NCBI GenBank assembly: GCA_020719045.1
Contig: DYQY01000004.1
Coordinates: 268-64,267 of the forward strand
DNA length: 64,000 bases
Reading direction: 5' to 3'
From: Candidatus Termititenax sp.
Lineage (GTDB): Bacteria; Margulisbacteria; Riflemargulisbacteria; GWF2-35-9; DYQY01
Shown here: positions 23,269 through 62,765 of the stretch, piece by piece
Position numbering within the stretch: the stretch's first letter is position 1
Layout: every line of letters starts with the position of its first letter
Notes under the pieces: model-generated
What the model was told of the DNA's origin: nothing
The model's input: only the letters and a program-made list of their open reading frames with translations
The model's database searches: none
Translations under genes and position numbers: made by a program

Positions 23269-23295
23269 TATCGTAAACAACTCCTGTCTATCCCA
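23269..23295 (-). promoter_or_regulatory. Candidate alternative-sigma promoter TGGGAT-N16-CGATA
   Basis: Minus strand reads TGGGAT agacaggagttgttta CGATA, ending 31 nt before the LacI start. Confidence 0.6.
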
Positions 23296-23391
23296 GCTAT
23301 TTTAAAAAACAATTCAATTTTTGAATAAACTTGAATGATATAATTGAACAAATACGGGAAAAATATTATATAATAAAATAAAGGTGGAAAA

Positions 23392-23715
23392 ATGGAAAAC
23401 GTACTAATTAATAAACTAGACCAACACACAACAGTTCTTCCATATAAATATGCTAAATTAATTGAGCCATTTAATCAATTTATGTTTTTTGATGAAAACT
23501 TACAAAAAATATTAGCTAAATCCATGCTACTTGAAGATAAGAAGCATAGAATTAATATTGCATTAAATATGGCACCAAAAAAAACACTTAGTAATAATAA
23601 AATAAGCTTTAAAATTATAGAATCACCAATTATTAATAGTGATGTCAACGTAAATATATCATTAAACGATGAAAGCTCTCTGAAATTTTATATTGAAGAG
23701 GGAATCAGCGTATAA
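23392..23715 (+). CDS. Hypothetical protein divergent from the LacI gene
   Basis: 107-aa ORF with AAGGTGG SD. Confidence 0.55.
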   Translation: MENVLINKLDQHTTVLPYKYAKLIEPFNQFMFFDENLQKILAKSMLLEDKKHRINIALNMAPKKTLSNNKISFKIIESPIINSDVNVNISLNDESSLKFYIEEGISV

Positions 23716-23783
23716 CAAAAACCTTTAACCAATAATCATACCGTTATATGATATTAATATTCAAAACTTTGAAAGGATTACAC

Positions 23784-24359
23784 ATGAACAATATTATTCT
23801 TAAATCGTTTAAAGATTCAATTGCACTTAAAGAAAGCGTACTAAATAATAAAACTATTCTTAACGCAATAAGTGATACAACGAAGATTTGCATTAACGCA
23901 CTTAAAAATGGAAACAAAATACTAATTGCAGGAAACGGCGGAAGTGCAGCTGACGCTCAGCATTTTGCAGCTGAGCTTGTCGGTAGATTCTATTTAAACA
24001 GAAAAGGACTAGCAGCAATAGCATTAACAACCGACACCTCAATCATCACCGCAATAGGTAACGATTTCGGTTACGAACAAATATTCAAGAAGCAAGTAGA
24101 AGGTCTAGGAAAAGAAGGAGACATATTTTTTGGCATATCAACCAGCGGAAACTCAAACAACATAATGGAAGCAATTCATGAATGTAAGGATAAAAACATA
24201 AAGGTTATTGGGCTTACAGGCAAAGACGGAGGCAAAATGGCACCTCTATGCGATATTAATATCTGTATCCCAGGAATCATAACCCCACGAATACAAGAAT
24301 GCCATAGTTTAATTATTCATATCATTTGCGAGATTATTGAGAAAGAAATTTTCAGCTAA
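23784..24359 (+). CDS. gmhA: Phosphoheptose isomerase
   Basis: GNGGSAADAQHFAAE, ISTSGNS, TPRIQECH. SD GAAAGGA precedes ATG 23784. Confidence 0.95.
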   Translation: MNNIILKSFKDSIALKESVLNNKTILNAISDTTKICINALKNGNKILIAGNGGSAADAQHFAAELVGRFYLNRKGLAAIALTTDTSIITAIGNDFGYEQIFKKQVEGLGKEGDIFFGISTSGNSNNIMEAIHECKDKNIKVIGLTGKDGGKMAPLCDINICIPGIITPRIQECHSLIIHIICEIIEKEIFS

Positions 24360-24807
24360 TATTTTTTCTTTTTGTTTCAAAAAATGAAGTTAAAATACTA
24401 GAACATTTTTCAGTTGGATAGTAATCATATTTTACTTTGTGAATTAATTTATTATCATCAAAAAAACTATACTTACTTACAACACATCCTGCCTTAGGAT
24501 CTATTGCCCCAAAAACCACTTTAGCAATTCTAGATTGGATTATTGCACCAACACACATGATACAGGGTTCAAGTGTAACATATAGCTCACAACCATCTAA
24601 TCTCCAGTTGTTTAGTGCCTTGCAAGCAGATTGAATAGCATCTACTTCTGCGTGAAGCAACGCATTATTATCTAAAACTCTTTTATTTCTACCTTTTGAT
24701 ATAATACAGCCATCTTTAACGATAATAGCTCCAACTGGAACATCATCATGTTCTAAGCAGAGTAGGGCTTGTTCATAAGCAATATCCATATAGCATAGAT
24801 TTTCCAT
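24352..24807 (-). CDS. tadA: tRNA adenosine deaminase
   Basis: VPVGA, HAE, LYVTLEPC..C, DPKAG. Confidence 0.9.
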   Translation of the reverse strand: MENLCYMDIAYEQALLCLEHDDVPVGAIIVKDGCIISKGRNKRVLDNNALLHAEVDAIQSACKALNNWRLDGCELYVTLEPCIMCVGAIIQSRIAKVVFGAIDPKAGCVVSKYSFFDDNKLIHKVKYDYYPTEKCSSILTSFFETKRKNIS

Positions 24808-24830
24808 ATAAGTTCTCCTATTATACACCG

Positions 24831-24859
24831 TTGACAGTGATTTTTTAGCATGGTATATT
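24831..24859 (+). promoter_or_regulatory. Sigma70 promoter for the tRNA pair
   Basis: TTGACA-17 nt-TATATT with an extended -10 TG, 35 nt before tRNA-Val. Confidence 0.8.
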
Positions 24860-24893
24860 TTCTAAGCCTTTTAAAAAGGTGGTATTTTGTTTA

Positions 24894-24969
24894 GGGCGGT
24901 TAGCTCAGATGGGAGAGCATCTGGTTTACACCCAGAGGGTCGGCAGTTCGATCCTGTCACCGCCCACCA
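24894..24969 (+). tRNA. tRNA-Val(TAC)
   Basis: Acceptor GGGCGGT/ACCGCCC, anticodon arm TCTGG-TT TAC AC-CCAGA, TTCGATC T-loop, encoded CCA. Confidence 0.97.
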
Positions 24970-24980
24970 TAAATATTAGT

Positions 24981-25055
24981 GGCCCCTTCGTCTAGTGGTT
25001 AGGACACCAGGTTTTCATCCTGTAAGCAGGAGTTCGATCCTCCTAGGGGCTGCCA
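24981..25055 (+). tRNA. tRNA-Glu(TTC)
   Basis: Acceptor GGCCCCT/AGGGGCT, anticodon loop TT TTC AT, TTCGATC, encoded CCA. One mismatch at the top of the anticodon stem. Confidence 0.93.
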
Positions 25056-25075
25056 TTTAAATATTCTTTTAAAGA

Positions 25076-26485: not shown

Positions 26486-26600
26486 TAACTAACTCCTTAT
26501 TCATTTAAAGATATTATGCTTATTCTACTAATATTTTGCAAGCGATGAGAGAGGCTCAATATCAACCAACCAAAAAGACAAGTAATTTACTAAATATTCA

Positions 26601-26628
26601 ATGTCGCATAATATATATTATGTAAAAT
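26601..26628 (+). other. dif-like XerC/XerD recombination site
   Basis: ATGTCGCATAA-TATATA-TTATGTAAAAT compared with E. coli dif GGTGCGCATAA-TGTATA-TTATGTTAAAT. The 11-6-11 architecture is intact. Confidence 0.8.
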
Positions 26629-26682
26629 ATCAATATTATTCTTTTATAGCCAAAACCCTTCTTGTTATTGATTAGCATAAAC

Positions 26683-26710
26683 TTATTCACAAAATTTTGC
26701 GTTATCCACA
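26683..26710 (+). promoter_or_regulatory. Two direct DnaA boxes
   Basis: TTATTCACA (26683-26691) and TTATCCACA (26702-26710) both match TTWTNCACA and are separated by 10 bp. Confidence 0.55.
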
Positions 26711-26822
26711 TTCACTCCTCAGTATCGACATTGTTTTATAATGAGAAATTTTGCCTTTTCATCCACCCAGCGATAATCTACAATTACCAAAGATAAAAAA
26801 CTTAAAATACAAGGGAGCTAAA

Positions 26823-30175: not shown

Positions 30176-30937
30176 TTATATTATTACTAACTCTACTGGA
30201 CAATGATCAGAGCCATAGACATTCTTATGTATACAGACATCAGTCACGCGATTAAACATTTGTTTACTTACTAAAAAATGATCAATTCTCCACCCTATAT
30301 TCCTAGCTCTTGCGTTTGCCATGTAGCTCCACCAAGTATACTCTTTTGACTCAGGGTACAAACTCCTGTATGCATCAACAAAGCCTGAACTTAAATAATT
30401 TCTAAACCCATCCCTTTCCTCATCCGTAAAACCTGCATTCATTCTATTAGTTTTGGGATTAGTTAAATCAATCTCTTCAGGAGCAACATTTAAATCACCA
30501 CAAACTATTACTGGCTTAATTTTATTTAAGCCTAAAAGAAAGCTCAAAAAATCTTTGTCCCATTCATTGTGACGATAATCTAAACGCAACAATTCTCTCT
30601 TAGAGTTTGGAGTGTATACATCCACCAAATAGAAATCAGGCAAGTCCAAGGTAATCACTCTACCCTCGTTATCATGCTTTTGTATACCAATGCCATAAAT
30701 AACTTCATATGGTTCTATTTTAGATGCAATACATGTACCAGAATAACCCTTTTTCTCAGCACTATTCCAGTATATAAACGGATACCCTAGCTCCGAAAAA
30801 TCTATTTCTACCTGATCTTCAGTAGCTTTAGTTTCTTGTATACATAAGATATCGGGATTATACGTGCTTACATATTGAGAAAATCCTTTATTAAGTACAG
30901 CCCTTATACCATTAACATTCCAGGTGTGTATACGCAT
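30176..30937 (-). CDS. xth: Exodeoxyribonuclease III / AP endonuclease
   Basis: [36 protein letters not shown]. Confidence 0.95.
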
Positions 30938-31620: not shown

Positions 31621-31622
31621 GT

Positions 31623-39296: not shown

Positions 39297-40208
39297 TTAT
39301 TCAGGTTTTAATATCTTTTTTAGTTTTTCTACTGAAGAACGATAAATCCTAGATACCTGAGACTCAGACAAATGCACCTTTTCTCCAATATCAACCAACG
39401 TTAAATCATTAACTGTCTTAAGAGTAACAATCCTTCGTTCAACATCAGTTAACTGCTCCATTGCGTGTTTTAAAGTTACCTTGCTTTCAATCCTACCTGA
39501 AAACTCTTCATAATGCTTGTTTATGCCAATATACATATAAGCAGCATCGGATATCCATGTGTACAACCTGCTTGGATCAGCCTTAGTTAAGTACCTAATG
39601 TAGTCCCTCATAGCTCCATTGATTCTTGAGTAAGCAAAAGGCCACACTGCTGGATTATCAATTGGCTCCCAAACTCGAAGTGTCTGAAGAAACTCGACTC
39701 TTGCTATATTCATTAAATCATCTTTATCACTTGTTTTCATAAACCCAGGTAATTTTCGCAAATAGTTATTTACTAAGCTTCCAATTTTATAATCAAACTT
39801 CTCAAATAACATCTCGCTAAACCTACAAATAAGATACTCTTTCAAGTCTATACCTAACTCTCTCAACATTTCTCTTGGTAACTCATCGGGGCAATCGCCT
39901 GACATCAAATCTGTAAGCTTCTTTAATGCTCTTTTCTCAAGTAGCTCATCAACCCTTACATCTTTAAGCACAGTATCTTCACGATACTGGTCATACTTCT
40001 TTTGAAGCAAAACCGCATCTTCAAGGTGTAGTCCTGTAAGAATAACGTTGATTATTTCTAATGCAGAATTCTTGTATAGTTTTTCAACTTTTGCATCAAT
40101 TGTATTAGGTAGGTGTTTGAACTCAAATTTAGTACTTGTTGTATCAGAACTGTCGCCCCACCCAGACATTTCTTTACGAGAAAATTCTGTTTTTTTTGAC
40201 ATAGTCAA
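39297..40208 (-). CDS. Alternative sigma70-family factor, FliA/SigD-like, with N-terminal extension
   Basis: Region 2 (DDLMNIA...FAYSRINGAMRDYIR) and region 4 HTH (LTDVERRIV.L....DLTLVDIGEKVHLSESQVSRI). Confidence 0.8.
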   Translation of the reverse strand: MTMSKKTEFSRKEMSGWGDSSDTTSTKFEFKHLPNTIDAKVEKLYKNSALEIINVILTGLHLEDAVLLQKKYDQYREDTVLKDVRVDELLEKRALKKLTDLMSGDCPDELPREMLRELGIDLKEYLICRFSEMLFEKFDYKIGSLVNNYLRKLPGFMKTSDKDDLMNIARVEFLQTLRVWEPIDNPAVWPFAYSRINGAMRDYIRYLTKADPSRLYTWISDAAYMYIGINKHYEEFSGRIESKVTLKHAMEQLTDVERRIVTLKTVNDLTLVDIGEKVHLSESQVSRIYRSSVEKLKKILKPE

Positions 40209-40226: not shown

Positions 40227-40592
40227 TTAATTTATAAGTGTTTTGTCTAACTCTTTTTGTTTACAATGCCTATTAGCAAAAGACATCACTCTACTATTTA
40301 GATAATCGTCTGCCATAATAGCCTCACGAATGACATCAACAACATGAGCTTCCTTAAGTAAATCTTCTCCGAATTCAACTAATAAAGCATTTTTTATAAT
40401 ATTTTCGGCAAGTTCTTCGTTAGACATGTTTTTTGCTGGAATAATTCCACACAACTTAACAAAATCTTCTACATGATGAGTTTTTTCCTCAACATTCTTA
40501 GATAAGAACTCATTATTTGCTACTAAAATTGATAAAGGGCCCTCATTACTGTAATCCTTAACTTGATGAACTGTTTCATTAACGCTTAACAT
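40227..40592 (-). CDS. Hypothetical helical protein (about 121 aa) between the flhA-like gene and the sigma factor
   Basis: SD AGGAG immediately before ATG 40592. Same strand as, and tightly spaced with, the sigma gene. Confidence 0.7.
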   Translation of the reverse strand: MLSVNETVHQVKDYSNEGPLSILVANNEFLSKNVEEKTHHVEDFVKLCGIIPAKNMSNEELAENIIKNALLVEFGEDLLKEAHVVDVIREAIMADDYLNSRVMSFANRHCKQKELDKTLIN

Positions 40593-40623: not shown

Positions 40624-40650
40624 TATCGTAAATGTAATGTAACAATTTCA
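40624..40650 (-). promoter_or_regulatory. Candidate alternative-sigma promoter TGAAAT-N16-CGATA
   Basis: Minus strand reads TGAAAT tgttacattacattta CGATA, ending 32 nt before ATG 40592. Confidence 0.5.
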
Positions 40651-40679: not shown

Positions 40680-42779
40680 TTAATTATTAATAATCCCAAT
40701 AGACTGAACCTTAATCTGCGGAACAATTTCATTATACGAAAGCACTGCAAACATTGGGAAGTTTCTCTCAATGAATCTCTTGAAATGTGGTCTAAGTCTT
40801 GGCGAACATAATATAATTGAAGGCTTCTTAAGCTTATTAAAGTTCTTCAAGTGTTCCTTTATTTGTCCTAAGACACTTTCACCAAGCCCAGGATCCAATG
40901 CTAGGAACGAACCATACTCGCTTTGATGAATAGCACTTATCATGCTTTCTTCAAGTCTAGGATCAATAGTAACAACTGTTACAGTGTCTTCCTTATCTGC
41001 ATATTGCCCACAAATCTGCCTTGCTAGTGACTGCCTAACATACTCAGCCAATAAGTTTGTATCTCTAGAAACATGAGCATAGTCAGCAAGACGTTCAAGG
41101 ATTGTTGATAAGTCTCTTATGCTCACTCGTTCTCTTACCAAATTTTGTAATACTTTATGAACTTGTCCTAAAGAAAGCATGTCTGGAACCAACTCTCGAA
41201 CAATGGCTGCATTTGTATTCTTAACTAGCTCTAACAATGCTTGAACATTCTGCCTTGTCATTATCTCATCAGCATAACGCTTAATCGTTTCCGCAAAATG
41301 TTCAGAAACATAATCAACAATAGTTTTAGCAGGGACTCCAAGCTGTTGAAGCTTATCACCAAACTCTGCATTAACCCAAACAGACCGACTTCCATTAACT
41401 GGATCTGTTACTTCTTCACCATCAATACCTTTTTCTTTAAGTTCAGCCAAAGTCATACGCACATAGTAAGCATTGGTATAACCTTCACCCAATGCAACCT
41501 TTGTACCTCTAATCTCAACCTTATATTGATTAGGTGGTAAACTCAAATCATCCATAACTCGAACCCCAGGTATAACAAATCCAAGTTCTTGACCTATCTG
41601 ATATCTAACAAGTGTTATTCTTTCTAATAGCGGTCCATTTTGTGAAGGGTCAATAAGTGGAACCAAGTTTCTACCAGTTTTAACAGAAATTGGATCCAAT
41701 GCAAGTGTTCCAAGTAAGTTCTCTGGCTTCTTCATAGCTTCTTTTGCGGCTTGCTCTTCCTGCGCAGAAACTGAATCTTCTTCAACAGCACTTGCTTTAT
41801 TTAGTGTGTATCCTAATAAGCCTGACCCAATAGCAAGTGTTAAAAAAGGTATTGTAGGTAATCCAGGTACTATTCCAAAAAGAGCAAGAATTACACCAGT
41901 AAATAAAAAAACATCAGGCTTTTTAAAAAGTTGACGAACAATATCTGTACCTAAACTATCTTCAGAAGCAGCTTTAGTAATAACTAGACCTGTTGATATT
42001 GACATAAGAAGCGCTGGAATCTGTCCAACTAAACCATCACCAATGGTTAATGTAGCAAATGTTTCCAATGATAAAGCTAAATCCATATCTTGTTGAAAAA
42101 TACCAATGATAATACCACCTATTAAATTAACCAAAACAATGATTATACCAGCAACAGAGTCTCCTCTAACAAATTTATTAGCACCGTCCATAGACCCAAA
42201 GAAAGTAGCTTCTTTTTGAATGTCTGATCGTTTAGCTTTTGCTTCATTTGCATCTATCAGACCAGAATTAAGGTCAGCATCAATCGACATCTGTTTACCA
42301 GGCATAGCGTCTAAAGTAAACCTGGCAGCAACTTCAGCCACACGCTCAGAACCTTTTGTAATTACCATAAACTGAACAATTGTTATAATTCCAAAAGCAA
42401 CAGCTCCTACAACCATATTTCCAGACGTAACGAACTTAGCAAACGCTAAAACGACTTTCCCATCAAAATCAGAACCTAAACTTAATATCATTCTTGTTGA
42501 AGATATGTTTAAGGCTAAACGAAATAATGTTGTTACCAACAATATAGAAGGGAAAGAAGCAAAATCCAAAGGTTTATGCAAAAAAATTGCTACTAATAAT
42601 ATTACTATTCCAATAGAAATATTTAATACCATAAGTAAGTCCAACATAAAAGTTGGCATTGGAATAATCATTATGGCAAGAACCATAACAAGTAATATTG
42701 CAACGCCTAAATCATTAATAGGGAATCTTTTAAAAAATTCTTGAAAGTTAAAATCGCTCGCAAATGGAATTGATACCAA
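40680..42779 (-). CDS. flhA: FHIPEP-family type III export gate (FlhA/SctV)
   Basis: FPSILLVTTLFRLALNISSTR, RVAEVAARFTLDAMPGKQMSIDADL, GSMDGANKFVRGD, TIGDGLV.QIPAL, VLSYNEI. Confidence 0.9.
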   Translation of the reverse strand: MVSIPFASDFNFQEFFKRFPINDLGVAILLVMVLAIMIIPMPTFMLDLLMVLNISIGIVILLVAIFLHKPLDFASFPSILLVTTLFRLALNISSTRMILSLGSDFDGKVVLAFAKFVTSGNMVVGAVAFGIITIVQFMVITKGSERVAEVAARFTLDAMPGKQMSIDADLNSGLIDANEAKAKRSDIQKEATFFGSMDGANKFVRGDSVAGIIIVLVNLIGGIIIGIFQQDMDLALSLETFATLTIGDGLVGQIPALLMSISTGLVITKAASEDSLGTDIVRQLFKKPDVFLFTGVILALFGIVPGLPTIPFLTLAIGSGLLGYTLNKASAVEEDSVSAQEEQAAKEAMKKPENLLGTLALDPISVKTGRNLVPLIDPSQNGPLLERITLVRYQIGQELGFVIPGVRVMDDLSLPPNQYKVEIRGTKVALGEGYTNAYYVRMTLAELKEKGIDGEEVTDPVNGSRSVWVNAEFGDKLQQLGVPAKTIVDYVSEHFAETIKRYADEIMTRQNVQALLELVKNTNAAIVRELVPDMLSLGQVHKVLQNLVRERVSIRDLSTILERLADYAHVSRDTNLLAEYVRQSLARQICGQYADKEDTVTVVTIDPRLEESMISAIHQSEYGSFLALDPGLGESVLGQIKEHLKNFNKLKKPSIILCSPRLRPHFKRFIERNFPMFAVLSYNEIVPQIKVQSIGIINN

Positions 42780-47951: not shown

Positions 47952-48209
<258 letters not shown>

Positions 48210-48229
48210 CTATTTATTTTTTTACTTCT

Positions 48230-48940
48230 TCAAAATATAAACATCAAAATCATTGCTACTACTAAAGAGTAAATAGCAGTTGATTGCGCTACTGATTGAC
48301 CCAAAAGCATAGTGGTTGTTACCGCTTTGCTTGACTTGGCATTAAATCCTATCGAACTTGTTGCCATCTCCGCAGTTAAACCACAACCAAGACCAGGACC
48401 TATTGCTCCAAACCCCATAGATAGTCCAGCACCCAAAATAGCTGCATTATGAAGTAAAGACTGAGTATGTGTTTGAAAAATCAATAACAACGTAACAACC
48501 AAAGCAAAAATAACAGAAGTCTGCGTAACCGCCTGCCCAATTAACATACAAATCATTAAACCTCCAGAATTCTCAGGTTTACGACCAATACCTTCACAAG
48601 TTGCCCCGACTGCTAACCCAGCACCTACTCCAGGCCCAAGAGCACCAACACCAATACATAACCCAGCAGAAACATAAGCAAACATAGCTGTCATAGAAGT
48701 ATCTCCACCTTTAAATAATAAAATTAAAGATACTAACAAAGCGAAGATACCTGAAGTTTCTGTAACCGCTTGTCCAATAAGCATTGTTCTTAACAAAGTA
48801 CCGCTTTGGTCAGGTTGTCTATTCATGGCCTTAATTGCCTTACCAGCGGCATATCCAACTCCAGCAGCTGTCCCAAGTGCACCTATTCCAACAGCAAGAC
48901 CAGAACCAACATAAGCACCAATTAACCCATAACTTAACAT
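48230..48940 (-). CDS. atpE: Triplicated Fo c subunit (3 hairpins, 6 TM)
   Basis: Three c repeats ending GQAVTETSGIF, GQAVTQTSVIF and GQSVAQSTAIY. Confidence 0.9.
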   Translation of the reverse strand: MLSYGLIGAYVGSGLAVGIGALGTAAGVGYAAGKAIKAMNRQPDQSGTLLRTMLIGQAVTETSGIFALLVSLILLFKGGDTSMTAMFAYVSAGLCIGVGALGPGVGAGLAVGATCEGIGRKPENSGGLMICMLIGQAVTQTSVIFALVVTLLLIFQTHTQSLLHNAAILGAGLSMGFGAIGPGLGCGLTAEMATSSIGFNAKSSKAVTTTMLLGQSVAQSTAIYSLVVAMILMFIF

Positions 48941-50848: not shown

Positions 50849-52639
50849 TTAGAAAGAATCCCAGTCAAATAAATCTTTAACTAATTTCTGTCCCATAGTT
50901 GTATTATAAATAATCTTTGCAAATTCTGCTCTAGTAATTGTTCTCTTTGGCTGGAATGTTCCGTCATTATAACCATTGATTAGACCATTATCTACAGCAA
51001 CTTCAATATACTTAGTAGACCATCTACTAACAGAAACATCTTTAAATCTACTCTTTAATGCTTTATCAGGAATAGTTAATCCTTCTAAAATAACTAAAGC
51101 TGATACTAACTGTTCTCTAGTTAAACTCTCTTCAGGTGAAAACTCTGTCGCAGAAGTACCAAGCATCAGTCCTGTCTGTCCTACAAGCTGAATATAATCA
51201 ACATATGGATGTTGTGCAATATCAGTAAACTTGTAGCCAGAAGATAAATTAATATCCTGAGTATTTAAGTTCTTTAAAGAACACAATACTTTAGCGTACT
51301 CTGCTCTAGTAACATTACCTTCAGGATTAAAGGTATCAGCTGTCTTTGGTCTTAATAACCCAAGAGTAGTTAATTCTTCAATATATTTTCTAGCCCAGTT
51401 ATGCATATCAACATCAGCAAAAGACATTAAGTAAATGTTTCTTAACTTAAGCTTTTGAAGAACTTTACTATCTTTATCTAAAACCTCAATGGTTATAGCT
51501 TGCTTTCCATAGTCCTGGAACTTAATAGTAGACATGATTCTGCTATTCTTAATCTCTACATCTGTTCCATTAATCTTTACCTTAGCTACTTTTGGAACTA
51601 CAGAACCAAGAACCTTGTGCATATTCTCATATGTTACAACTTTATCCTCTGGACTCTTTATCTGCATATACTCATCAGTATATACTTCCTCAGGTTTCAT
51701 AAGGTCAAAAGCAATAGAAAAATAATGAGTGTTATTTGCAGAAAAATCATTTGGATCTAGAGAATATGCATAATCAAATTTGATACCATCAAAATTGATT
51801 CCAACACCTAATGAAAAAATATTAACTGCTGATACATTATTAGTACCTGATGCCCACTTCTCATTACCATAACCAGCTCTAAAAGCTAGCATAGAGTTAG
51901 GTTGATACTCTGCACCAACTTTAATCATTGATTGTTGATCAACAATTCCATAATCCATAGAAAAGTCTAGTTTTTGATTCTTAGAGTATAAGAATGTACC
52001 AGCTTCTCTACCAATAAACCTGTAAGCGCCACCAAAGGTTAGCTTCTGTTGTAAATTATCTTCTCCACCACCATTTACTTTAATTTTTATAGGAAAAAAG
52101 TTTTGGTAAACTGCTGATAGTTTTAAAGCAGGAAACGCCTGATAAAGAATACCTAAATCAGCATTATAAACTGAATTATTAAAGCCATCTGCATTAGCGT
52201 ATCTATACTTACCAGTTAATCCAAGAAATAATTTATCATCAACCTTAGCAGAAACACTACCTAAAAGTGAAATATCATTGTAACCAAGCATATTACTAAA
52301 CACATATCTATCAGTATCCCAGGATGCTTGAGGTATATTAGTTCCAATATAGTAGAACCCTAACCCATAACTAATATCACCAGGGAAAACGACTGCACCA
52401 TTAATAAGATTAACATCAGAAAATAAATTGCTTTGCATTAAGCCTACTTGAGCAATACTGTTTTGTCCCATTGCTGCAGGATTAACAAACACAGCAGAAT
52501 AATCATCAACTAATGCTGAGTATGCATTACCTACTCCAATACCTCTTGCGCTTGTATAACGATAAGATGGGTCAACAGAACCAGTCGCTAACAACAATCC
52601 AAACAAACTTACTACAAAACCAACCCTTAATGCTTTCAT
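50849..52639 (-). CDS. PorV/FadL-like outer-membrane beta-barrel fused to three C-terminal SLH domains
   Basis: Signal peptide, SARGIGVGNAYSALVDDYSAVFVNPAAMG N-terminal motif, barrel strands ending THYFSIAF, and SLH repeats (F.DV...W, TRAE, TREQ, ITRAEF). Confidence 0.8.
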   Translation of the reverse strand: MKALRVGFVVSLFGLLLATGSVDPSYRYTSARGIGVGNAYSALVDDYSAVFVNPAAMGQNSIAQVGLMQSNLFSDVNLINGAVVFPGDISYGLGFYYIGTNIPQASWDTDRYVFSNMLGYNDISLLGSVSAKVDDKLFLGLTGKYRYANADGFNNSVYNADLGILYQAFPALKLSAVYQNFFPIKIKVNGGGEDNLQQKLTFGGAYRFIGREAGTFLYSKNQKLDFSMDYGIVDQQSMIKVGAEYQPNSMLAFRAGYGNEKWASGTNNVSAVNIFSLGVGINFDGIKFDYAYSLDPNDFSANNTHYFSIAFDLMKPEEVYTDEYMQIKSPEDKVVTYENMHKVLGSVVPKVAKVKINGTDVEIKNSRIMSTIKFQDYGKQAITIEVLDKDSKVLQKLKLRNIYLMSFADVDMHNWARKYIEELTTLGLLRPKTADTFNPEGNVTRAEYAKVLCSLKNLNTQDINLSSGYKFTDIAQHPYVDYIQLVGQTGLMLGTSATEFSPEESLTREQLVSALVILEGLTIPDKALKSRFKDVSVSRWSTKYIEVAVDNGLINGYNDGTFQPKRTITRAEFAKIIYNTTMGQKLVKDLFDWDSF

Positions 52640-52648: not shown

Positions 52649-55528
52649 TTATCTGGTTACCAGGAACTTGCTGGTACCTAACACAGACTTGCCGTGTACT
52701 ATCTGAACAAAATATAAACCAATTGCTAACTTATCATTGAAAGCATCAACACCATTGAAACTTATCTGATTATATCCAGTACTTCCACCAGTAAATCCTC
52801 TTGAATAGATGTTTCTCCATACTACTTGACCTAATAGGTTGTAAACATAAACCTCAACATCACCTTGAGCAGTTAGCTCGTATGCAATATCCATATTACC
52901 GTTATTTGGGTTATATGGCATTGGGTAGCATAGTACCTTTGATCCTGGTTTTAAAGTTACGGTACCAGAGCTATCAGCTACCACCATTTTTTCAACTACA
53001 TTTGACTTCATATCTGTAAAATCATCTCTTACAACAAAAATATCTAACTCATTAATTCCTGAATCTAAAGTAACTGGAATTACAACCCTCTTAGAATAGT
53101 TAGTATTATCAGCTGGTACAGATATTGAGTTCTTTGTAACACCATTAGATTTAATATATAAAGTTACATTCCAAGTATTTGCATAACAATCAACAGAAAC
53201 AGCTAAATCAACATTACCCTGTAAATAATCACCATCTCTAACACTTCTTGTTACAGAACCTGCTTGGGAATATTGAACTGTGTTGTTAACTGTTAAGTAT
53301 CCATTAATACTAAATAGTCCACCAAGTTGATACAATGGTTTATCTGCAGCAGTTGCACTAGAATACATTCCTAAATTGTTTTCATTATAAGCAAACACTG
53401 AGTAGTAATAAACAGTACCATCAATCATAGGTTCTTGGAATGTTGTTCCAGAAGTAACTACGAAGCTTGTTCCTTCAGTTATACTTACTGGGAAGGTGCT
53501 TGTATTTGGATAACTTGTGACGTTTCTTACAACCAAGTATGATGTTGCACCAATCGATTCTTCCCATGTTAATTTAGCAAATGGACCAAACACGGTTGCT
53601 TTTAAGTTCTGTACGTTTGCAGGTGTTCCATAGAAGAACTCTACATCATCAATATTAATCTGAGATTTGTCATTAGAACCATCTATCTTCAACTGAACAG
53701 CAACTGCATTCTTAAGTACATCGATTAAAGATACCTTTGTTCCCCATGCACTATTCTGTGACATACTATTGAAATATATATAATAAGTATTCCATGTTGC
53801 AGTATTAGCGACTGAAACCATATTAGTATGTCTATTGTAGTCAACATATACTGGAGAATCTATCTCTAAACCAATGTTAGCTGAACCATATGCTCTAAAC
53901 TTAACACCACTGAAGCCAGAAATATTTTGAAGATTAGTTGATACAGCATCTAATCCAAAGCCGATACCAACGAATGGTTTACTAAAAGCTGTATTCACAT
54001 CATACGATACGAAAGCAACTTTATTAGAACCATCAATAACAATACTCATTGTAACTTCAGAATTTCCATAGTTTGGAGAAGCCTTATCATTATAAACATA
54101 GTTATAGCCACCCCACTTATTCTGGTTACCGTTTTCGAAGTTTGTAATTACTCTTCCTTTTTCAAAAACTATTGAATTACCAGTACTTCCTGTACCCATA
54201 TCACCAGAAACTAAGTATATCTCATCAACTTGGAACCATCCATTAGTGCCAGATACTTGAGGATAAGCCTTAAACTTAAGTGATAACATTCTTTGTAATG
54301 CTGTCTGTAGGCTAACCTGTGTTCCCCAGCTATCCTGAGTAAAATGTGACAATGATATTACATATTCTTTCCAGTCATTAGTTAGTGTAACAACATTATA
54401 AAAATGATTGTAATCTGATATTACATCTGTTGTTGTTTCTAGCTCAACTGCAATACTTCCAGCACCTTTAGCAATAAATCTTATCGCACCAAAGGAAGCT
54501 ATATTTCTTTCTGCTTTATTAGCTTTAAGATCAAGACCATATCCAGAGTAAATAGCACCTGCACCTTGAAGCACATAGTTTTGTCTATATGACTTTAAAG
54601 TACCAACTGCACCCTCTGACATAATCGAGTCCCCATATAAAGATTCATCATTTTTATATGAATAGTTATATCCACCAAGTTTATTAATTCTAAAAATTGA
54701 GCTACCTGCTTCAAAATCCTCAATTAACAATCCATCAATAGTAGTTATATTTATTGTTGGATTAACTGTTGGAACAATTGGTCCTGTTGGAACAACTGGA
54801 GTAGTTGTAGGTGTACCCTCAAAAATAGTCAAATTAGCTGTATTTAAATAAAGATCAATTACAGCAGGAACATAGTCTACCGTTAGTCTACTATCAAAAC
54901 CAAATCCTTCTGACGAAGTCCAAGCCACTAACTCATAGCCATTTGGATTAGGAAAAACATTTCCTGATTCATCTCTAAATGAGTTCATATTGAAATATTG
55001 TCTGTAACCTAAAGAATAATCCCTACTAGTAGTATAATCGTTTCTATAAAGAACAACCTGTGGAATGCTATATTCAAAAAGGTCATTAATAGCTCTAACA
55101 AAAACAAAAACATCATTACTTACTAGAATAGTATTTGAGTCTAACATGTATACTTTATTAAGAACTAATTGACCACCTTGATCAATTGGATTCTCCGCGG
55201 TTCTTAAACTAAAATTTTGACCATTATTTAAATACTTACTTCCACCGCTATTAATCTGAAAAGTATAGTTTGTGCTTGCATCAAGAAACTTAACAACAAT
55301 TATATGTATCTTATCAGAAACACTAGATCCTCTTAAATCATATGCTATGGTATTAGGTACTGTATTACCCCACTCAATGTATCCTTCTTCTGCTTGGTCT
55401 GTATACCAAACGACTGTGAAGCTTTTATCTGTTACGTCAACTATCTGGATATTTTTTGGTGTTGATGCAAAGCTAAGTCCACTTATTACTAGAAGGAAAA
55501 AACTTAGTACTATTAATTTTAACTTCAT
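52649..55528 (-). CDS. Secreted multidomain protein: FN3-like + two CBM11/CIA30-like + FN3 + T9SS-type-A/FlgD-like C-terminal domain
   Basis: Signal peptide, LIEDFE and ITNFE..IDDVEF beta-sandwiches, P/T linker, C-terminus CYPMPYNP...VYVYNLLGQVV...GLYFVQI...KFLVTR. Confidence 0.75.
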   Translation of the reverse strand: MKLKLIVLSFFLLVISGLSFASTPKNIQIVDVTDKSFTVVWYTDQAEEGYIEWGNTVPNTIAYDLRGSSVSDKIHIIVVKFLDASTNYTFQINSGGSKYLNNGQNFSLRTAENPIDQGGQLVLNKVYMLDSNTILVSNDVFVFVRAINDLFEYSIPQVVLYRNDYTTSRDYSLGYRQYFNMNSFRDESGNVFPNPNGYELVAWTSSEGFGFDSRLTVDYVPAVIDLYLNTANLTIFEGTPTTTPVVPTGPIVPTVNPTINITTIDGLLIEDFEAGSSIFRINKLGGYNYSYKNDESLYGDSIMSEGAVGTLKSYRQNYVLQGAGAIYSGYGLDLKANKAERNIASFGAIRFIAKGAGSIAVELETTTDVISDYNHFYNVVTLTNDWKEYVISLSHFTQDSWGTQVSLQTALQRMLSLKFKAYPQVSGTNGWFQVDEIYLVSGDMGTGSTGNSIVFEKGRVITNFENGNQNKWGGYNYVYNDKASPNYGNSEVTMSIVIDGSNKVAFVSYDVNTAFSKPFVGIGFGLDAVSTNLQNISGFSGVKFRAYGSANIGLEIDSPVYVDYNRHTNMVSVANTATWNTYYIYFNSMSQNSAWGTKVSLIDVLKNAVAVQLKIDGSNDKSQINIDDVEFFYGTPANVQNLKATVFGPFAKLTWEESIGATSYLVVRNVTSYPNTSTFPVSITEGTSFVVTSGTTFQEPMIDGTVYYYSVFAYNENNLGMYSSATAADKPLYQLGGLFSINGYLTVNNTVQYSQAGSVTRSVRDGDYLQGNVDLAVSVDCYANTWNVTLYIKSNGVTKNSISVPADNTNYSKRVVIPVTLDSGINELDIFVVRDDFTDMKSNVVEKMVVADSSGTVTLKPGSKVLCYPMPYNPNNGNMDIAYELTAQGDVEVYVYNLLGQVVWRNIYSRGFTGGSTGYNQISFNGVDAFNDKLAIGLYFVQIVHGKSVLGTSKFLVTR

Positions 55529-55562: not shown

Positions 55563-55589
55563 TATCGAAAGAAAAAATCATAATTCCCA
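55563..55589 (-). promoter_or_regulatory. Candidate alternative-sigma promoter TGGGAA-N16-CGATA
   Basis: Minus strand reads TGGGAA ttatgattttttcttt CGATA, ending 35 nt before ATG 55528 and lying downstream of a terminator. Confidence 0.65.
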
Positions 55590-55660: not shown

Positions 55661-55692
55661 AACAAAAGGGGGCACCAGATGGTGCCCCCTTT
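55661..55692 (-). terminator. Intrinsic terminator after the 2024-aa gene
   Basis: Hairpin AAAGGGGGCACCA-GA-TGGTGCCCCCTTT, with TTTTGTT on the minus strand. Confidence 0.85.
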
Positions 55693-58700: not shown

Positions 58701-61700
58701 GTCACTTGTCCAATAACCAGCAGGAATATTTATATTCTTATAAATAGTTCCTCCATAGTAATTAACTGCTGGAGATTCTTCCTTTGTTTCAACATATATT
58801 GAATACAAAAGATTCCAACTTACACTACTCTCAGTCACTTTCTCATAAAAAATATCTACACTAGTTGTCTTGCCCCAAGAACCATTTACAGGCACACCAG
58901 CAACTAGTTCGAAATTATCTATTTCTGGAAAAAATACTTTTTTAGTTGGATCAGAACCATTAATGAACTCTTGTAAATCAGTTAAACCATCACCATCTGT
59001 ATCCTTAAGTGACTGATCAGGATTAATATTAGCAACATTTGAAGATAATCCATACTGAATTTCCCACCAGTTTGGTAGTCCATCACCATCCGTATCATCA
59101 GATGTTGGCACTGTAGATAATGATATTTCATCCAACTTAGCCTTAATAACTCCATTCTGTGTTGCAGATATAAATGAATATCCTACATATGTTAAGTTAT
59201 TTAAATCTAATAAGCCATTTCCACTAGCAACTGTGTTCTTCTTAGTAAAATTACTTAATACAAACGTATACCATTTCCAATCAGCAGTTACTAATATTTG
59301 AGTAAAACTGTATGCATCTCCGTCTTTGTCTTGGAATTGCATTTCAATTTTGTCGCCAATTTTTCCTTCTTTGTTGTTAATTAGCATTGCGACTGACTTA
59401 TATGCTGCTGGCATTGTATTTAGTGGATTATAGATATATGAACCTACAAATCCTCCAAAGTAATTTACTGCAAGACCATTAACTAATAATGATGTTGTTG
59501 GATATCCAGCTTGAGTTGGTCTTGTAGCAGAAATCCCTTCAGCAACCCATGTGTATCCCATTCTTTCAAAATTATCAATAAGAGGAAAATGTGGAGTCCA
59601 TTGTGTAGGATTGGTTCTAGCAGAATACTCTTCTAAATCACTCCATCCGTCACCATCAGTATCTCCAAGATTTGCAACTAGTACATTCAAATTATTAGAA
59701 ACTTCATACCAATTAGGAATCCCGTCTCCATCAGTATCTCCTGATATATTAGAAGTAGATACATTAATATTATCAACATATACGCTTACATTTCCTGTAG
59801 CAGTAGCTGATAACAACTCAACTCTAATATATGCTGTTTGATTAAATTGTTTAATACCATTGCCTGTTGATCCAGGTTTAATAGTAAATCTATCAAGCAA
59901 CATGCCTAAATATGTCCATGCTTGAATATCGCCAATATATTGTTCGAATTGCCATACATCACCATCTGTTTCAATAAGTTTTACTGCAACTCTATCACCA
60001 ACATTTGAATTTGCTTTAATAAGCATATTCAATGTTTTATAATCAGTTGTCCAATCAGAAACATCAGATAAAATATCTTTTTGAATACCACCAACATAAT
60101 AGTCAGTAGCTTTTCCGCTAATTAACATAGAATTCTGATAATTCCATGAAACTTTTGTATCAGTTGTATTTGCAACTGATGTTGTAATAGTAGTTCCAGC
60201 ATCTGCTATCCACTTTGTTATGCCTTTTTCGAAATTATCAATCTCAGGAAAAGAACTCATTCCATCAGCTACAAAAGGATTTGTACCATTTAATATTTCA
60301 TTATAATTATCAATACCATCGCCATCAGGATCTGCTTTAGCATCTGATGCTAAGTTAGGATTTAATCCATTTGCTGTTTCATCTGCATTTGGAATACCAT
60401 CCATATCAGTATCTGATTCAATAGCTGGAGAATAAGGATTATTTCTTGTTGTTACTAGTTCAATATTCTCAATTATAATTTTACCAGAACGACCTGCTTT
60501 ACCAGTAGAAACTGCAAAACCAATCATAGGAGAACCAGGATAAATAAGATTATATCCTGCAAAAACATCAATCATTTGCAATGGATTAAATACACTATCG
60601 CCTCCAACGTTATTCTTACTTAATAAAACCTGACTAAGAGGAATATAAATATCTCTCCATTGACCATCGTTTTTCATAAGTTTTAAGTTATATACCCACT
60701 CATTATCATCAGAAGAATTAAAAGAAAAATCTTTATTATCATTATCTTTAATGTCTAACTTAAGATCTACTGGACCATCTCCAACATTCTTAACTGAGAA
60801 CTTAATATATCTGTATCTTCCCCAGTCATATGCCTTGTTTGTTTTAATATTGCTACCACCGTAAAGTGCTGGCTCATAAAAAGTTGTTGAAAAATCATAA
60901 AGAAAGTAACCATTATATCCATCTTGGTCAGCATTATATGCTGTTACTTCAAGTGCTTTTTGATATTGAGCATTTGTTGTAAGAGCTAATGAAAGGTTTC
61001 CAGACTTTTGCCATCCCAAGGTATCAACACCATCAAAGCTATCAATAACAGGTATTGGATTCTCAAACATAGTCACATCTGCTCTTGAAACATTTAATGG
61101 AATCCTAAGTTCGGCTACTCTTTTACTTCCAATATTATTATACCCACCAGTATAACCTCTAGAGAAGTTCATAAAACTTACAACAAGAACATCTTCATTA
61201 TCATTTTTACTAAAAAGGTTGGTATTTGCTTGATTAAGGAAAGGAGCATTTACTGTTTCCCATTCATGAATAAATCCAGTAGCATCTGTTGTTATTCCAG
61301 ATAATCCACTTCTAACAGCAGACCTTGTACCGTTAGGCTTCTCAATATACATCTCATAATAAACATTTTGAATATTTTCAGCTTGATAATATCCTACCTT
61401 TTCTATATAAGTAGTATTATTAACCTTTCCAGCAATATTTAAACCGCTTCCTGCAGTACCAGTATAGGAAGCTGACTTTACTGAATAATTACCAGATACA
61501 GTTGTTCCAGATTTAATTTGAAAACTATAGGTAGTATTTGGGTCACAGTTTACGTCTACATAATGCAATTTGAATTTTTTATCAATAATACTTGGATAGT
61601 ACTGTACTCTTTTGTCTATAAATGTACCCTCACCTGGTACAATTACGCTCCCCTCCTCCGCTATATCGCTTATCCAACTTATTGAAAAACTGTCTCCCCT

Positions 61701-61793
61701 TACATTAGTTATCCTAACGTCAGAGATTGCTGATGCAAAACCCATTGTCATTAATACTAAAAAAACTGCTCCTCTTACTAATATGTTCCTCAT
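55719..61793 (-). CDS. 2024-aa secreted repeat protein: CBM-like beta-sandwiches alternating with DTDGDG Ca-binding (TSP3-like) linkers
   Basis: Signal peptide, FN3-like N-domain, seven IDxF(D/E)-initiated modules, repeated DTDGDGLPNW.E...G..P motifs, and C-terminal GWN repeats. Confidence 0.8.
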   Translation of the reverse strand: MRNILVRGAVFLVLMTMGFASAISDVRITNVRGDSFSISWISDIAEEGSVIVPGEGTFIDKRVQYYPSIIDKKFKLHYVDVNCDPNTTYSFQIKSGTTVSGNYSVKSASYTGTAGSGLNIAGKVNNTTYIEKVGYYQAENIQNVYYEMYIEKPNGTRSAVRSGLSGITTDATGFIHEWETVNAPFLNQANTNLFSKNDNEDVLVVSFMNFSRGYTGGYNNIGSKRVAELRIPLNVSRADVTMFENPIPVIDSFDGVDTLGWQKSGNLSLALTTNAQYQKALEVTAYNADQDGYNGYFLYDFSTTFYEPALYGGSNIKTNKAYDWGRYRYIKFSVKNVGDGPVDLKLDIKDNDNKDFSFNSSDDNEWVYNLKLMKNDGQWRDIYIPLSQVLLSKNNVGGDSVFNPLQMIDVFAGYNLIYPGSPMIGFAVSTGKAGRSGKIIIENIELVTTRNNPYSPAIESDTDMDGIPNADETANGLNPNLASDAKADPDGDGIDNYNEILNGTNPFVADGMSSFPEIDNFEKGITKWIADAGTTITTSVANTTDTKVSWNYQNSMLISGKATDYYVGGIQKDILSDVSDWTTDYKTLNMLIKANSNVGDRVAVKLIETDGDVWQFEQYIGDIQAWTYLGMLLDRFTIKPGSTGNGIKQFNQTAYIRVELLSATATGNVSVYVDNINVSTSNISGDTDGDGIPNWYEVSNNLNVLVANLGDTDGDGWSDLEEYSARTNPTQWTPHFPLIDNFERMGYTWVAEGISATRPTQAGYPTTSLLVNGLAVNYFGGFVGSYIYNPLNTMPAAYKSVAMLINNKEGKIGDKIEMQFQDKDGDAYSFTQILVTADWKWYTFVLSNFTKKNTVASGNGLLDLNNLTYVGYSFISATQNGVIKAKLDEISLSTVPTSDDTDGDGLPNWWEIQYGLSSNVANINPDQSLKDTDGDGLTDLQEFINGSDPTKKVFFPEIDNFELVAGVPVNGSWGKTTSVDIFYEKVTESSVSWNLLYSIYVETKEESPAVNYYGGTIYKNINIPAGYWTSDYKSLKYVAKNLGSIGDKVEFVITDADGDEFSFTQTFGDKSVWTYYTLLLDKFKIKLYNNNGVMDFDNGVTKLAINILSSTPTGDVYFRLDNISISTVPTSDDTDGDGLPNWYETMYGIDPNVVNTGDVDGDGWSDLSEYVARTNPNQWTPRFPLIDNFERAGYTWTAEGITATRSTQAGYPTTSLLVNGLAVNYFGGFVGSYIYNPLNTMPAAYKSVAMLINNKEGKVGDKIEMQFQDKDGDAYSFTQVLVTSDWKWYTFVLSNFTKKNSVASGNSALDLNNLTFVGYSFISATQNGTIKVKLDEISLSMVPTSDDTDGDGLPNWWETQYGLNPNVANINPDQSLKDTDGDNITDLDEYLRGLNPTIKNLFPEIDNFEDGLTLWVVDAGTTLVKTSASTDTTVSWNYQKSMLLSGTATGSYYISGVQKDVLSDVSGWTSDYLSLKMLLLSSGQVGDKVAVKIVETDGDVWAFNQYISDLNKWTYLTMMLDRFELVSGSTGNGIKEFNKTNFIRLEVISVKATGNVSMYIDSLSVAKTPTSDDTDGDGLPNWYETMYGINPNVVNTGDVDGDGWSDLSEYVARTNPNQWTPRFPLIDNFERVGYTWTAEGITATRSTQAGYPTTSLLINGLAVNYFGGSLGSYIYNPLNTMPAGMMSVAMYIDNSNGKVGDKIEMQLQDKDGDVFSFTQVLVTSNKKWYTLVLSNFKKKNTISSGNSVLDLNNLTFVGYSFISAFSTGNISVKLDEISLSAVPTSDDTDGDGLPDWWEIFYDLDSNVANINPSGDIADTDQDGMNDLEEYLTGTNPNQGYLRNVLKGWNFFSVVNEGGQKISQIVAYLETKLGAGTIKNAAIWNRDDGKFIYMSDDFTVAYGESYYIDSSVRKAISASVTASMPQSYFFKNGWNLLGKPAGKAYKASELLKELNDRNLDGEIDDLDLPLRAEEIRVYDNYYYTGWLRYRYDNTGTDFTVGATYKSYGFMIKVKEDLNWTPKKDM
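56401..59750 (-). repeat. Three near-identical intragenic direct repeats of about 690 bp
   Basis: Copies at about 56401-57089, 57721-58409 and 59062-59750 (offsets 1320 and 1341 bp). For example, agtggattatagatatatgaacct occurs at 56761, 58081 and 59422. Confidence 0.9.
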
Positions 61794-61895
61794 CCCTTAA
61801 CTCCCTTCGTTTATTAAAAATCCACTAATCAAATCATATATACCACAACCACAACAAAATAATTCATCCAAATATATTAATGCATCCTAGCAAAA

Positions 61896-62702
61896 TTATG
61901 TATCATCACGCTTCTCTAATTTTGCATCCAATCCAAGATCTACAGATGCTCTAAAGAACATACTAGGTCCAACTGCAGGAACTTCAGCCTTATAAACTTT
62001 ATTAGTTCCATCTTCTTCTTTTAGCATAGCACCAGCTGGAGTCCAAGTTTTTAAGTCAAAAGAACTCTGAATGCTAACACTATTCGAAGAATCCTGAGTT
62101 GCAGGCATCATTAAATTTACATTCAGGGGTGATTTTGTAATTTGTATATTACCATTAATTACAGGCAATAAAGCATCAGTAAAATAATTATAATACTCTG
62201 CATCTGTCACAATCAATGCTTGCTGTTCAGCAGAAGGATTTATGCCGTATTTTGAATAATCAGCAGGATTAACCGTCTTTGTATCAGTAATATTAATTTT
62301 TGTGCCATTAAAGTCCCAAACAAACATTGCATTCCTAACAGAAGCAACAGGATTATCAACTATAAATAAAGGATCCTCATCAGTACTTTTAACATACTTC
62401 ATGGCTGTATTCGTATATGGCTTAGAAGTATCGTCGGCAACTTCCATTTGTTGAAGTAAAGCAATATTGGCAGGTGTTATATCAAAACTATTAAATGGAG
62501 TAATAAAAGAGCTTAAAGCAGTTGCTAATACTTGTGTTCCTGGATCACTTAAATTTAAATTACTTAATTCAGTTTGCTCTATTTTTCCATTTTTAGCTAC
62601 GACAGTGTTACTACCATCTAACAACGAAAGAGTAGAACTAATTCCTTCTGTCTGATACTTTCCGATTCTTGGGACTCCATTTATTAGTGTTATTCCTGCC
62701 AT
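61896..62702 (-). CDS. Hypothetical protein, no Sec signal
   Basis: 268 aa, SD AAGGAG, C-terminal QSSFDLKTW...MFFRASV motif. Confidence 0.7.
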   Translation of the reverse strand: MAGITLINGVPRIGKYQTEGISSTLSLLDGSNTVVAKNGKIEQTELSNLNLSDPGTQVLATALSSFITPFNSFDITPANIALLQQMEVADDTSKPYTNTAMKYVKSTDEDPLFIVDNPVASVRNAMFVWDFNGTKINITDTKTVNPADYSKYGINPSAEQQALIVTDAEYYNYFTDALLPVINGNIQITKSPLNVNLMMPATQDSSNSVSIQSSFDLKTWTPAGAMLKEEDGTNKVYKAEVPAVGPSMFFRASVDLGLDAKLEKRDDT

Positions 62703-62738
62703 AATTTATCACTCCTTTTATAAGATTACTCGTCAAAT

Positions 62739-62765
62739 TATCGTTATGACTTTCACATATTCCCA
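62739..62765 (-). promoter_or_regulatory. Candidate alternative-sigma promoter TGGGAA-N16-CGATA
   Basis: Minus strand reads TGGGAA tatgtgaaagtcataa CGATA, ending 37 nt before ATG 62702. Confidence 0.65.

Follow-up and report, generated by a model that had tools for sequence, protein, structure and literature searches.

A Margulisbacteria promoter family with a sigma-28-like -10 element and altered -35 boxes

The motif TGGGAW-N16-CGATA recurs in a 64,000-nucleotide stretch of a Margulisbacteria metagenome-assembled genome (the whole stretch is called the window here; C28:268-64267) and belongs to a family of real promoters, for which motif, spacing, position, conservation and class structure are shown here. 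These are probably sigma-28 (FliA)-type promoters with a changed -35 element; the sigma-28-type -10 element and register are known, whereas the -35 boxes are altered. Margulisbacteria are an uncultured phylum, sister to Cyanobacteria, and to our knowledge transcription in the source organism has never been tested experimentally. No work on Margulisbacteria promoters or sigma factors was found among the literature matches listed, as judged by titles and the starts of abstracts. The source genome (G000; 1.75 Mb, 34% G+C, 31 contigs) has its nearest named records in Riflemargulisbacteria and Marinamargulisbacteria, and 30 relatives (G001 to G030) were compared with it. Three promoter classes are distinguished by their -35 boxes, all followed by N16-CGATA: class A (TGGGAW), class B (TGCAAY) and class C (TGAAAT; TGAAAY in cross-genome counts).

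Results

A motif with fixed spacing precedes start codons

The window contains four copies, one of them close to a terminator-like hairpin:

23269..23295, minus strand: class-A promoter TGGGAT-N16-CGATA, before a LacI-family regulator gene (22270-23238; LacI, Peripla_BP_3), 30 nucleotides (nt) from the ATG
40624..40650, minus strand: class-C promoter TGAAAT-N16-CGATA, before orf121 (40227-40592) and an atypical sigma gene (39297-40208)
55563..55589, minus strand: class-A promoter TGGGAA-N16-CGATA, before the gene of a 959-amino-acid (aa) protein (52649-55528) and a PorV-family/SLH gene (50849-52639)
55665..55692, minus strand: terminator-like hairpin (12 pairs, 8 of them G-C) that ends the upstream 2024-aa gene
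62739..62765, minus strand: class-A promoter TGGGAA-N16-CGATA, before the gene of a 268-aa protein without known family (61896-62702)

A preliminary description of this DNA had reported these four minus-strand copies with 16-nt spacing, and a sequence check found all four exact. Their distance to the start codon, given there as 31 to 37 nt, measured 30, 31, 34 and 36 nt from the motif end to a start codon preceded by a ribosome binding site (RBS). The copy at 55563 had been placed just after a terminator, which agrees with the terminator-like hairpin 55692-55665. The four copies compare with a mean of 0.19 in 100 shuffles; this window count was fitted after the fact, and genome-wide testing was therefore used as independent evidence.

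Scans with other spacings as controls revealed a spacing-specific enrichment across G000. TGGGAW-Nk-CGATA occurred 17 times at k=16 versus 0-3 times elsewhere (0, 2, 1, 1, 0, 1, 2, 2, 0, 3, 2, 0 and 0 copies at k=10-15 and 17-23), and all 17 copies lie before start codons. One-mismatch variants at N16 remained at background level (42 versus 33-50 at spacings 13-15 and 17-19). All hexamers placed 16 nt before one of the 2375 CGATA copies were ranked blind, and TGGGAA came first, with 12 occurrences versus 0.625 on average for eight other spacings. Directly downstream, a start-codon context was present at 17/17 class-A, 12/14 class-B and 7/9 class-C sites, versus 7/27 for the same boxes at other spacings. 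Thirteen of the class-A sites were followed by an RBS and start codon (at 23-41 nt in 11 cases) and four by an ATG at 7-13 nt. An Rfam search of five loci downstream of sites returned one tRNA and nothing else, indicating that the sites do not drive known RNAs.

Exact boxes with no excess of one-mismatch variants are more typical of some operators, so that the sites could be thought to bind a dimeric regulator or to be the remains of a repeat element. However, the boxes are neither palindromic nor direct repeats, and the spacers between them are mutually unrelated. Orientation is strict, the distance to start codons is fixed (including the ATG at +7 nt), and the -10 element and register match sigma-28 promoters (see below). 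An origin other than a promoter is thus hardly credible.

The -10 element and register are those of sigma-28 promoters

At 6 of 20 sites of the sister genus G004, the distance from CGATA to an ATG is exactly 7 nt, and this ATG starts a 91-275-aa open reading frame (ORF) without an RBS. Comparable cases in G000 have the ATG 7-13 nt after CGATA. If the ATG-at-7-nt cases are leaderless mRNAs, CGATA is located at about -12 to -8, with +1 lying 8 nt past its final A. CGATA would be the -10 element, and transcription would start about 7-8 nt downstream of it; for the LacI-gene promoter, the start is predicted near 23261. Short-leader and apparently leaderless mRNAs may be common among the units of all three classes.

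PMC12784957 describes the sigma-28 -10 consensus as having a CGATA core with a flipped-out A-11. There, the Pseudomonas aeruginosa fliC promoter is given as (-36)TCTAAAG(-30) and (-15)GCCGATAA(-8), and Q228 and S224 of sigma4.2 are said to contact positions -36 to -34, Q228 being at -36/-35. Aligning CGATA to the promoter as given there places the TGGGAW, TGCAAY or TGAAAT hexamer exactly on CTAAAG, and the register between the two elements is identical. As in the sigma-28 (FliA/SigD) promoters of Escherichia coli, P. aeruginosa and Bacillus subtilis (TCTAAAG...GCCGATAA), the -10 core is CGATA followed by A or T (CGATA being required by our pattern), and the -35 box stands in the same register. 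Unlike in those promoters, the hexamer in this register is TGGGAW, TGCAAY or TGAAAT instead of (T)CTAAAG or its TAAA core, and a conserved GC extended -10 element is lacking, since mostly A or T directly precedes CGATA. In canonical sigma-28 promoters, the place of TGGGAW is taken by CTAAAG. The preliminary description had read CGATA as a sigma-28-type -10 element with an altered -35 box, and the shared core and register bear this out.

Canonical copies coexist with the altered ones in G000. Only 4 CGATA sites carry CTAAAG, and allowing CGAAA as well raises the number to 6; CTAAAG-N16-CGATA/CGAAA precedes a flagellin gene and a neighbouring gene. The canonical copies include CTAAAGG..CCGAAAAT before the flagellin gene (C4:41738) and CTAAAGTTT..CCGATAA (C4:56531). 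No spacing peak was found for TAAA-Nk-CCGAWA in this AT-rich genome; only CTAAAG gives one.

Three -35 classes share one -10 element and one spacing

At the same -10 element and the same spacing, G000 carries 17 TGGGAW, 14 TGCAAY and 9 TGAAAT boxes, which together amount to about 40 transcription units. In the hexamer ranking, TGAAAT reached 9 versus 0.875, TGCAAC 9 versus 0.875 and TGCAAT 5 versus 0.375 (means of eight other spacings). A single motif TG(G/A)(G/A)AW had been proposed for the window copies. Three of them are indeed TGGGAW, whereas the copy at 40624 carries TGAAAT and belongs to a separate, itself enriched class; TGCAAY is a third class that the earlier motif lacked.

Among tandem paralogous small genes, one is preceded by TGCAAC and another by TGGGAA. 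A small-gene family (39-92 aa; C22:134180, C22:134590, C24:7514 and C27:60870 of G000) has a near-identical promoter and leader (CGTTCGATAACTTAATAT) with differing -35 classes. Identical class-B promoters are located 2.7 kb apart at C25:5409 and 8144, before paralogous 481- and 482-aa genes without known family.

The classes are conserved to different extents in the phylum

Motif counts in the relatives were compared with those of a reversed-pattern control. Class A was far above the control in G001 (20 versus 0), G002 (21 versus 4), G003 (34 versus 1), G004 (20 versus 2) and G005 (15 versus 0), amounted to 5-18 sites in family f3 and was high across the order. Outside the order, G028 (19 versus 0) and G030 (11 versus 0) stood out, and most other families were near background; 5-6 of the 11 matches in G030 are intergenic and promoter-like. 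Class A is common in only about half of the 31 genomes. Class B is widespread (29 sites each in G014, G019 and G020, 44 versus 0 in G022, and 48 in G028; controls 0-1) and low in G005, G018, G021, G023, G024 and G026. Class C occurs phylum-wide and peaks where class B is low, with 44 sites in G018, 62 in G021, 67 versus 1 in G024, 44 in G027 and 70 in G030 (controls 0-2); G028 has 88 versus 0.

Individual sites also have counterparts in relatives. The site before the 959-aa gene corresponds to C14:38615 in G003, and a TGGGAA..CGATA site at C14:31333 lies 7.28 kb from it, the equivalent gap in G000 being 7.18 kb. Comparison by eye of C14:31333 with the G000 site at 62739 showed identical boxes and 7/16 equal spacer positions. 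G030, which is a single contig, has 5-6 intergenic TGGGATTTT sites whose context is common with about 68 TGAAATTT sites. Its class-C promoters (C1) have a long common consensus, TGAAATTT..TTTGACGATATATATACAGAGGGGA, and many stand before paralogous proteins of about 477-490 aa, one with an SLH domain.

Two non-canonical FliA-family sigma factors are candidate readers

G000 contains nine sigma-70-family genes: two RpoD-like, one short RpoS-like, one SigB/F/G-type, two extracytoplasmic function (ECF) and three FliA-family genes. Canonical FliA (C31:133955-134689; TIGR02479, 214.2 bits) is encoded after flhA1-flhF-flhG, and a second protein, FliA-like2 (C22:90266-91045; TIGR02479, 120.5 bits), lies within the flagellar rod-protein operon. 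The third is encoded in the window:

39297..40208, minus strand: atypical sigma, 303 aa, described by profile matches, alignments and an AlphaFold2 model
40227..40592, minus strand: orf121, a small protein without known family and predicted sigma-binding partner (candidate anti-sigma or co-factor)
40680..42779, minus strand: flhA2, a second FHIPEP export-gate paralogue (FHIPEP, 822.9 bits), adjoining the sigma operon on its upstream side

The atypical sigma scores 54.7 bits with TIGR02479, below the FliA/WhiG family cut-off of 189.6. It matches Sigma70_r4 with 37.6 bits, the r2 domain with 23.1 bits (cut-off 24) and TIGR02937 with 58.2 bits (cut-off 42.9), and no sigma3 domain was recognisable in the profile search. 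It has an extra N-terminal domain (about residues 1-105), a FliA-like RINGAMRD in sigma2 (region 2.4) and the sigma4 helix SESQVSRIY. Its AlphaFold2 model (mean predicted local distance difference test score [pLDDT] 80.0, predicted template modelling score 0.60) gave only generic sigma matches in Foldseek (WhiG, SigA and sigmaE). The core of about 200 aa is present in 30/31 genomes, usually in the order flhB-flhA-small ORF-sigma, and a word-based search found the family in Margulisbacteria only. Family f3 and G005 encode the N-terminal domain (window 39894-40208), modelled as helix, beta-hairpin, helix, by an ORF of its own (about 101 aa). In family f1 it is fused to the sigma, and fused-length sigma ORFs also occur in G023 and G026. 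Neither this domain nor orf121 has a family in Pfam (E up to 5) or the protein atlas.

Twelve orthologues of orf121 were aligned. The predicted complex of orf121 with the sigma scored 0.76, versus 0.01 for the best of three controls; the mark for this score is reached by 116/157 solved complexes and 2/215 mismatched pairs. The runs agreed in at least 46% of contacts, with a partner pLDDT of at least 62, and the predicted contact is the invariant LTKADPSRLY-WITDAAYMY segment of the sigma, after region 2.4; in the 301-aa form, this contact segment comprises residues 205-225. The modelling thus supports orf121 as a putative binder of the atypical sigma, that is, a candidate anti-sigma or co-factor.

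The recognition helices of the three proteins are SESRISQVH (canonical FliA), SKSKISRLH (FliA-like2) and SESQVSRIY (atypical). The first is the helix of FliA proteins that read CTAAAG, and where the P. aeruginosa protein has Q228, both non-canonical sigmas carry Arg. Arg at this -35-contacting Gln position fits boxes that begin with TG instead of CT and does not separate the two sigmas. FliA-like2 is likewise present in 30/31 genomes, and the two co-occur almost everywhere, so that phyletic profiles are confounded. Two apparent losses were discarded: the missing atypical sigma of G029 is probably due to an assembly break, since the contig breaks off 437 nt from its flhA, and the missing FliA-like2 of G019 is unreliable because weak FliA-family matches are present there.

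A site orthologous to the one before the orf121/sigma operon exists in 12/30 genomes, with a variable -35 box. It is TGAAAT in G000, G003, G006, G008, G010, G011 and G030, TGCAAT in G001 and G002, TGAGAT in G004, TGGGAT in G007 and TGAAAC in G009; inspection by eye showed TGAATT variants in G005 and G015. This promoter is not of the AAC/CGT (ECF) type. No class A, B or C promoter was found before the FliA-like2 operon, where a sigma-70-like TTGATT-N17-TATACT was seen by eye.

FliA-like2 is an equal or slightly better candidate than the atypical sigma

RNA polymerase holoenzyme with one of the two non-canonical FliA-family sigmas would read classes A, B and C, and on the comparative data FliA-like2 appears to be an equal or slightly better candidate than the atypical sigma. 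We give close to an even chance to FliA-like2 reading all three classes, in which case the orf121/atypical-sigma operon would be one of its targets and a cascade would result. The FliA-like2 helix varies with the promoter classes: SKSK/SNSK helices occur together with classes B and C; helices of the S[RK]PKVCR or SRSKVNR form (G013, G021, G024, G027 and G030) accompany class C only; and SEATVSR/SPATVSR helices (G023 and G026) go with no visible TGNNAN class.

The preliminary description had instead assigned the motif to the atypical sigma. According to this explanation, the 303-aa protein reads TGGGAW (and TGAAAT) with CGATA and regulates its own operon, orf121 acting as anti-sigma. The promoter before orf121 and the sigma gene in 12/30 genomes, along with the two TGAATT variants, and the predicted orf121-sigma complex are in its favour. 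So are the FliA-like RINGAMRD, a helix that differs from SESRISQVH at the base-contacting positions and the richness of class A in the family whose N-terminal domain is fused to the sigma. However, G023 and G026 keep the atypical helix and region 2.4 unchanged, yet have no TGNNAN-N16-CGATA class. G016 and G020 share the same atypical helix and have 8 versus 29 class-B sites, with FliA-like2 helices SRSRVCRIH and SNSKVCRLH, respectively. Furthermore, the promoter of the sigma's own operon is usually TGAAAT and not TGGGAW, and the sigma occurs in 30/31 genomes, whereas class A is common in only about half. What stands of the earlier assignment is a related promoter before the operon; no observation links TGGGAW to the sigma at 39297 in particular. 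Autoregulation is likewise backed by a conserved promoter of the family, but the site is TGAAAT and a cascade is the alternative. We regard reading by the atypical sigma as possible rather than probable, though little less likely than reading by FliA-like2.

Several points weigh against FliA-like2 as the single reader and against the wider interpretation. Mixed boxes are scarcely used (TGGAAW 0, TGAGAW 2 and TGCGAA 1), and position 6 of the -35 box is class dependent (class A prefers A over T, class B prefers C over T and class C has T only). A single reader of all classes would therefore need an unusual, non-additive specificity. The correlation between helix and class comes from about three clades, and kin are not independent; the two sigmas are told apart by a single lineage, family f13 (G023 and G026); and neither helix explains the abundance of class A, since G008, G017 and G020 have the helices of class-A-rich genomes and only 5, 6 and 2 sites. 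Start sites are inferred from ATG positions alone. The reversed-pattern control may understate chance matches at higher G+C, and the class-A richness of G026 (10 versus 1) was dropped because 8/10 sites lie inside long ORFs on pieces with 45% G+C.

The discrete, non-additive boxes speak against one reader for all classes. FliA-like2 could read TGCAAY and TGAAAT while the atypical sigma reads TGGGAW only, so that the window would mix two regulons and the sigma operon would be under FliA-like2. The differing preferences at position 6 fit this division, as do the Arg at the Gln228 position in both sigmas and the classes mostly being kept, by eye, at seemingly orthologous sites within a genus. In contrast, one reader for all classes is suggested by the change of class at the promoter of the sigma operon, by the tandem paralogues that carry either TGCAAC or TGGGAA, and by the context that TGGGATTTT sites share with the TGAAATTT majority in G030. 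Class A is also rare in many genomes with the same atypical helix. A division between two readers is, in our view, decidedly unlikely.

A class-A reader other than FliA-like2 or the atypical sigma is unlikely overall. The sites have boxes similar to those of TGAAAC...CGTA-type ECF promoters, the ranges of canonical FliA (14/31 genomes) and flagellin (PF00669; 13/31 genomes, G000-G012) overlap the class-A-rich lineages, and orthologues of the RpoS-like sigma (C1:696-1460) were found in the order only. However, the canonical FliA helix matches that of CTAAAG readers, and CTAAAG sites precede flagellar genes here. Class A exists in G028 (19 versus 0) and G030 (5-6 verified sites), where no canonical FliA, flagellin or RpoS-like sigma was found. 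The RpoS-like sigma has the RpoD-type 4.2 helix SRERVRQI, and neither ECF gene is preceded by such a site, ECF2 having a GGAAC-type upstream box. Reading of class A by canonical FliA, the RpoS-like sigma or either ECF sigma is therefore very doubtful.

Targets examined are non-flagellar

Class-A targets in G000 comprise the LacI regulator, the 959-aa protein with the PorV-SLH gene and the 268-aa protein of the window. In the other units, RelA/SpoT follows a phosphotransferase system (PTS) EI-HPr fusion, polyphosphate kinase accompanies an HD protein, a UDPGP-like enzyme is paired with a sugar ABC (ATP-binding cassette) transporter, and an AI-2E transporter comes after an unknown protein. Giant proteins (2343 and 5569 aa, the longer one with a GH8 domain), small proteins of 39-92 aa and further unknowns complete the list. 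Most of the class-B and class-C targets (20 genes scanned) are unknowns; the others include LOG, DHH, a deaminase and a small MgtE_N protein. Neither the first genes of the 17 class-A sites nor the 20 class-B/C genes scanned include a recognisable flagellar gene, in line with the non-flagellar programme proposed at the outset. The narrower proposal of surface glycan-binding proteins plus a sugar regulator does not cover PTS EI-HPr/RelA-SpoT, HD/polyphosphate kinase, UDPGP/ABC and the many unknowns. In G004 and G005, too, class A targets PTS EI or HPr, and RelA_SpoT-domain proteins are targeted in G005 (class A) and G030 (class C), a match at family level only.

The 5569-aa ORF (C20:11847-28556) has a GH8-like start and a very long, near-exact internal duplication and contains a run of N; the duplication may be either a genuine one in tandem or an artefact of the assembly.

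The 959-aa protein carries a C-terminal sorting domain of the type IX secretion system (T9SS) type (Por_Secre_tail, 24.9 bits; cut-off 23), and the product of 50849-52639 matches PorV_fam (92.8 bits; cut-off 90) and SLH three times. A PorV/PorQ-family barrel fused to three SLH domains thus lies downstream of a T9SS-type C-terminal-domain cargo in a phylum outside Bacteroidota.

Flagellar genes and the neighbourhood of the sigma operon

G000 has two FlhA (FHIPEP) paralogues, one at C31:129439-131571 (flhA-flhF-flhG-orf84-fliA) and one at 40680-42779 of the window, where flhA2 is placed after the ATP synthase operon and before orf121 and the sigma gene. In the ATP synthase operon, a 236-aa protein with three ATP-synt_C stretches stands beside an ordinary 81-aa c subunit (window 47952-48940). 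Rod proteins were found in G018, G021, G024, G027 and G030. Several of G013-G030 have an ORF before the sigma gene that resembles flhA in size, as judged by length and not by a FHIPEP scan, and an FlhB-like C-terminus was seen by eye upstream of flhA in G013, G016, G018, G020, G023, G024 and G027. G013-G030 could retain a flagellar basal-body relic without a filament.

Discussion

The promoters described here resemble sigma-28 systems in that a FliA-family sigma is their likely reader, as judged from promoter and helix comparisons, and in that canonical copies coexist before the G000 flagellin gene. They differ in that the examined targets are non-flagellar and in their number, with 40-100 sites per genome, also in genomes in which flagellin was not found. 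A promoter of the TAAA...GCCGATAA type is kept by Streptomyces WhiG and Chlamydia sigma-28. Both are likewise FliA-family sigmas for a non-motility programme (PMC12871210; 10.1101/322701). Unlike in these two cases, the -35 code is changed here and up to three FliA-family sigmas occur together.

Some features are instead reminiscent of ECF sigma/anti-sigma operons such as that of B. subtilis SigW, which have TGAAAC-N16-CGTA-type promoters. As in those, the atypical sigma is two-domain sized (about 195-215 aa in relatives) and co-transcribed with a predicted binding partner, and its operon promoter combines a TGnAAn -35 box with a CG-initial -10 element at 16 nt. In contrast to ECF operons, the -10 element is CGATA and not CGT(A/C), region 2.4 and the 4.2 helix are FliA-like, the best PDB sequence matches of the sigma are FliA chains and the partner has no anti-sigma family signature.

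A wider scenario, which we offer as speculation and regard as unlikely, is that Margulisbacteria re-coded the sigma-28 promoter, changing CT to TG via a Gln-to-Arg exchange in sigma4.2. FliA-derived sigmas encoded beside flhB-flhA and in the rod operon would then run a non-flagellar regulon of 40-100 promoters, even where no flagellin was found but basal-body genes persist. The export core would serve as a checkpoint or secretion device that releases a sigma from a small partner (e.g., orf121), as in FlgM export, and the three boxes would split the output between two sigma paralogues.

The promoter code is exact enough to predict regulons phylum-wide from sequence alone. It would be a natural example of altered sigma-28 specificity in which the residues concerned are known to touch the -35 element, and it draws attention to genomes that retain basal-body genes and two FliA-derived sigmas where no flagellin was found.

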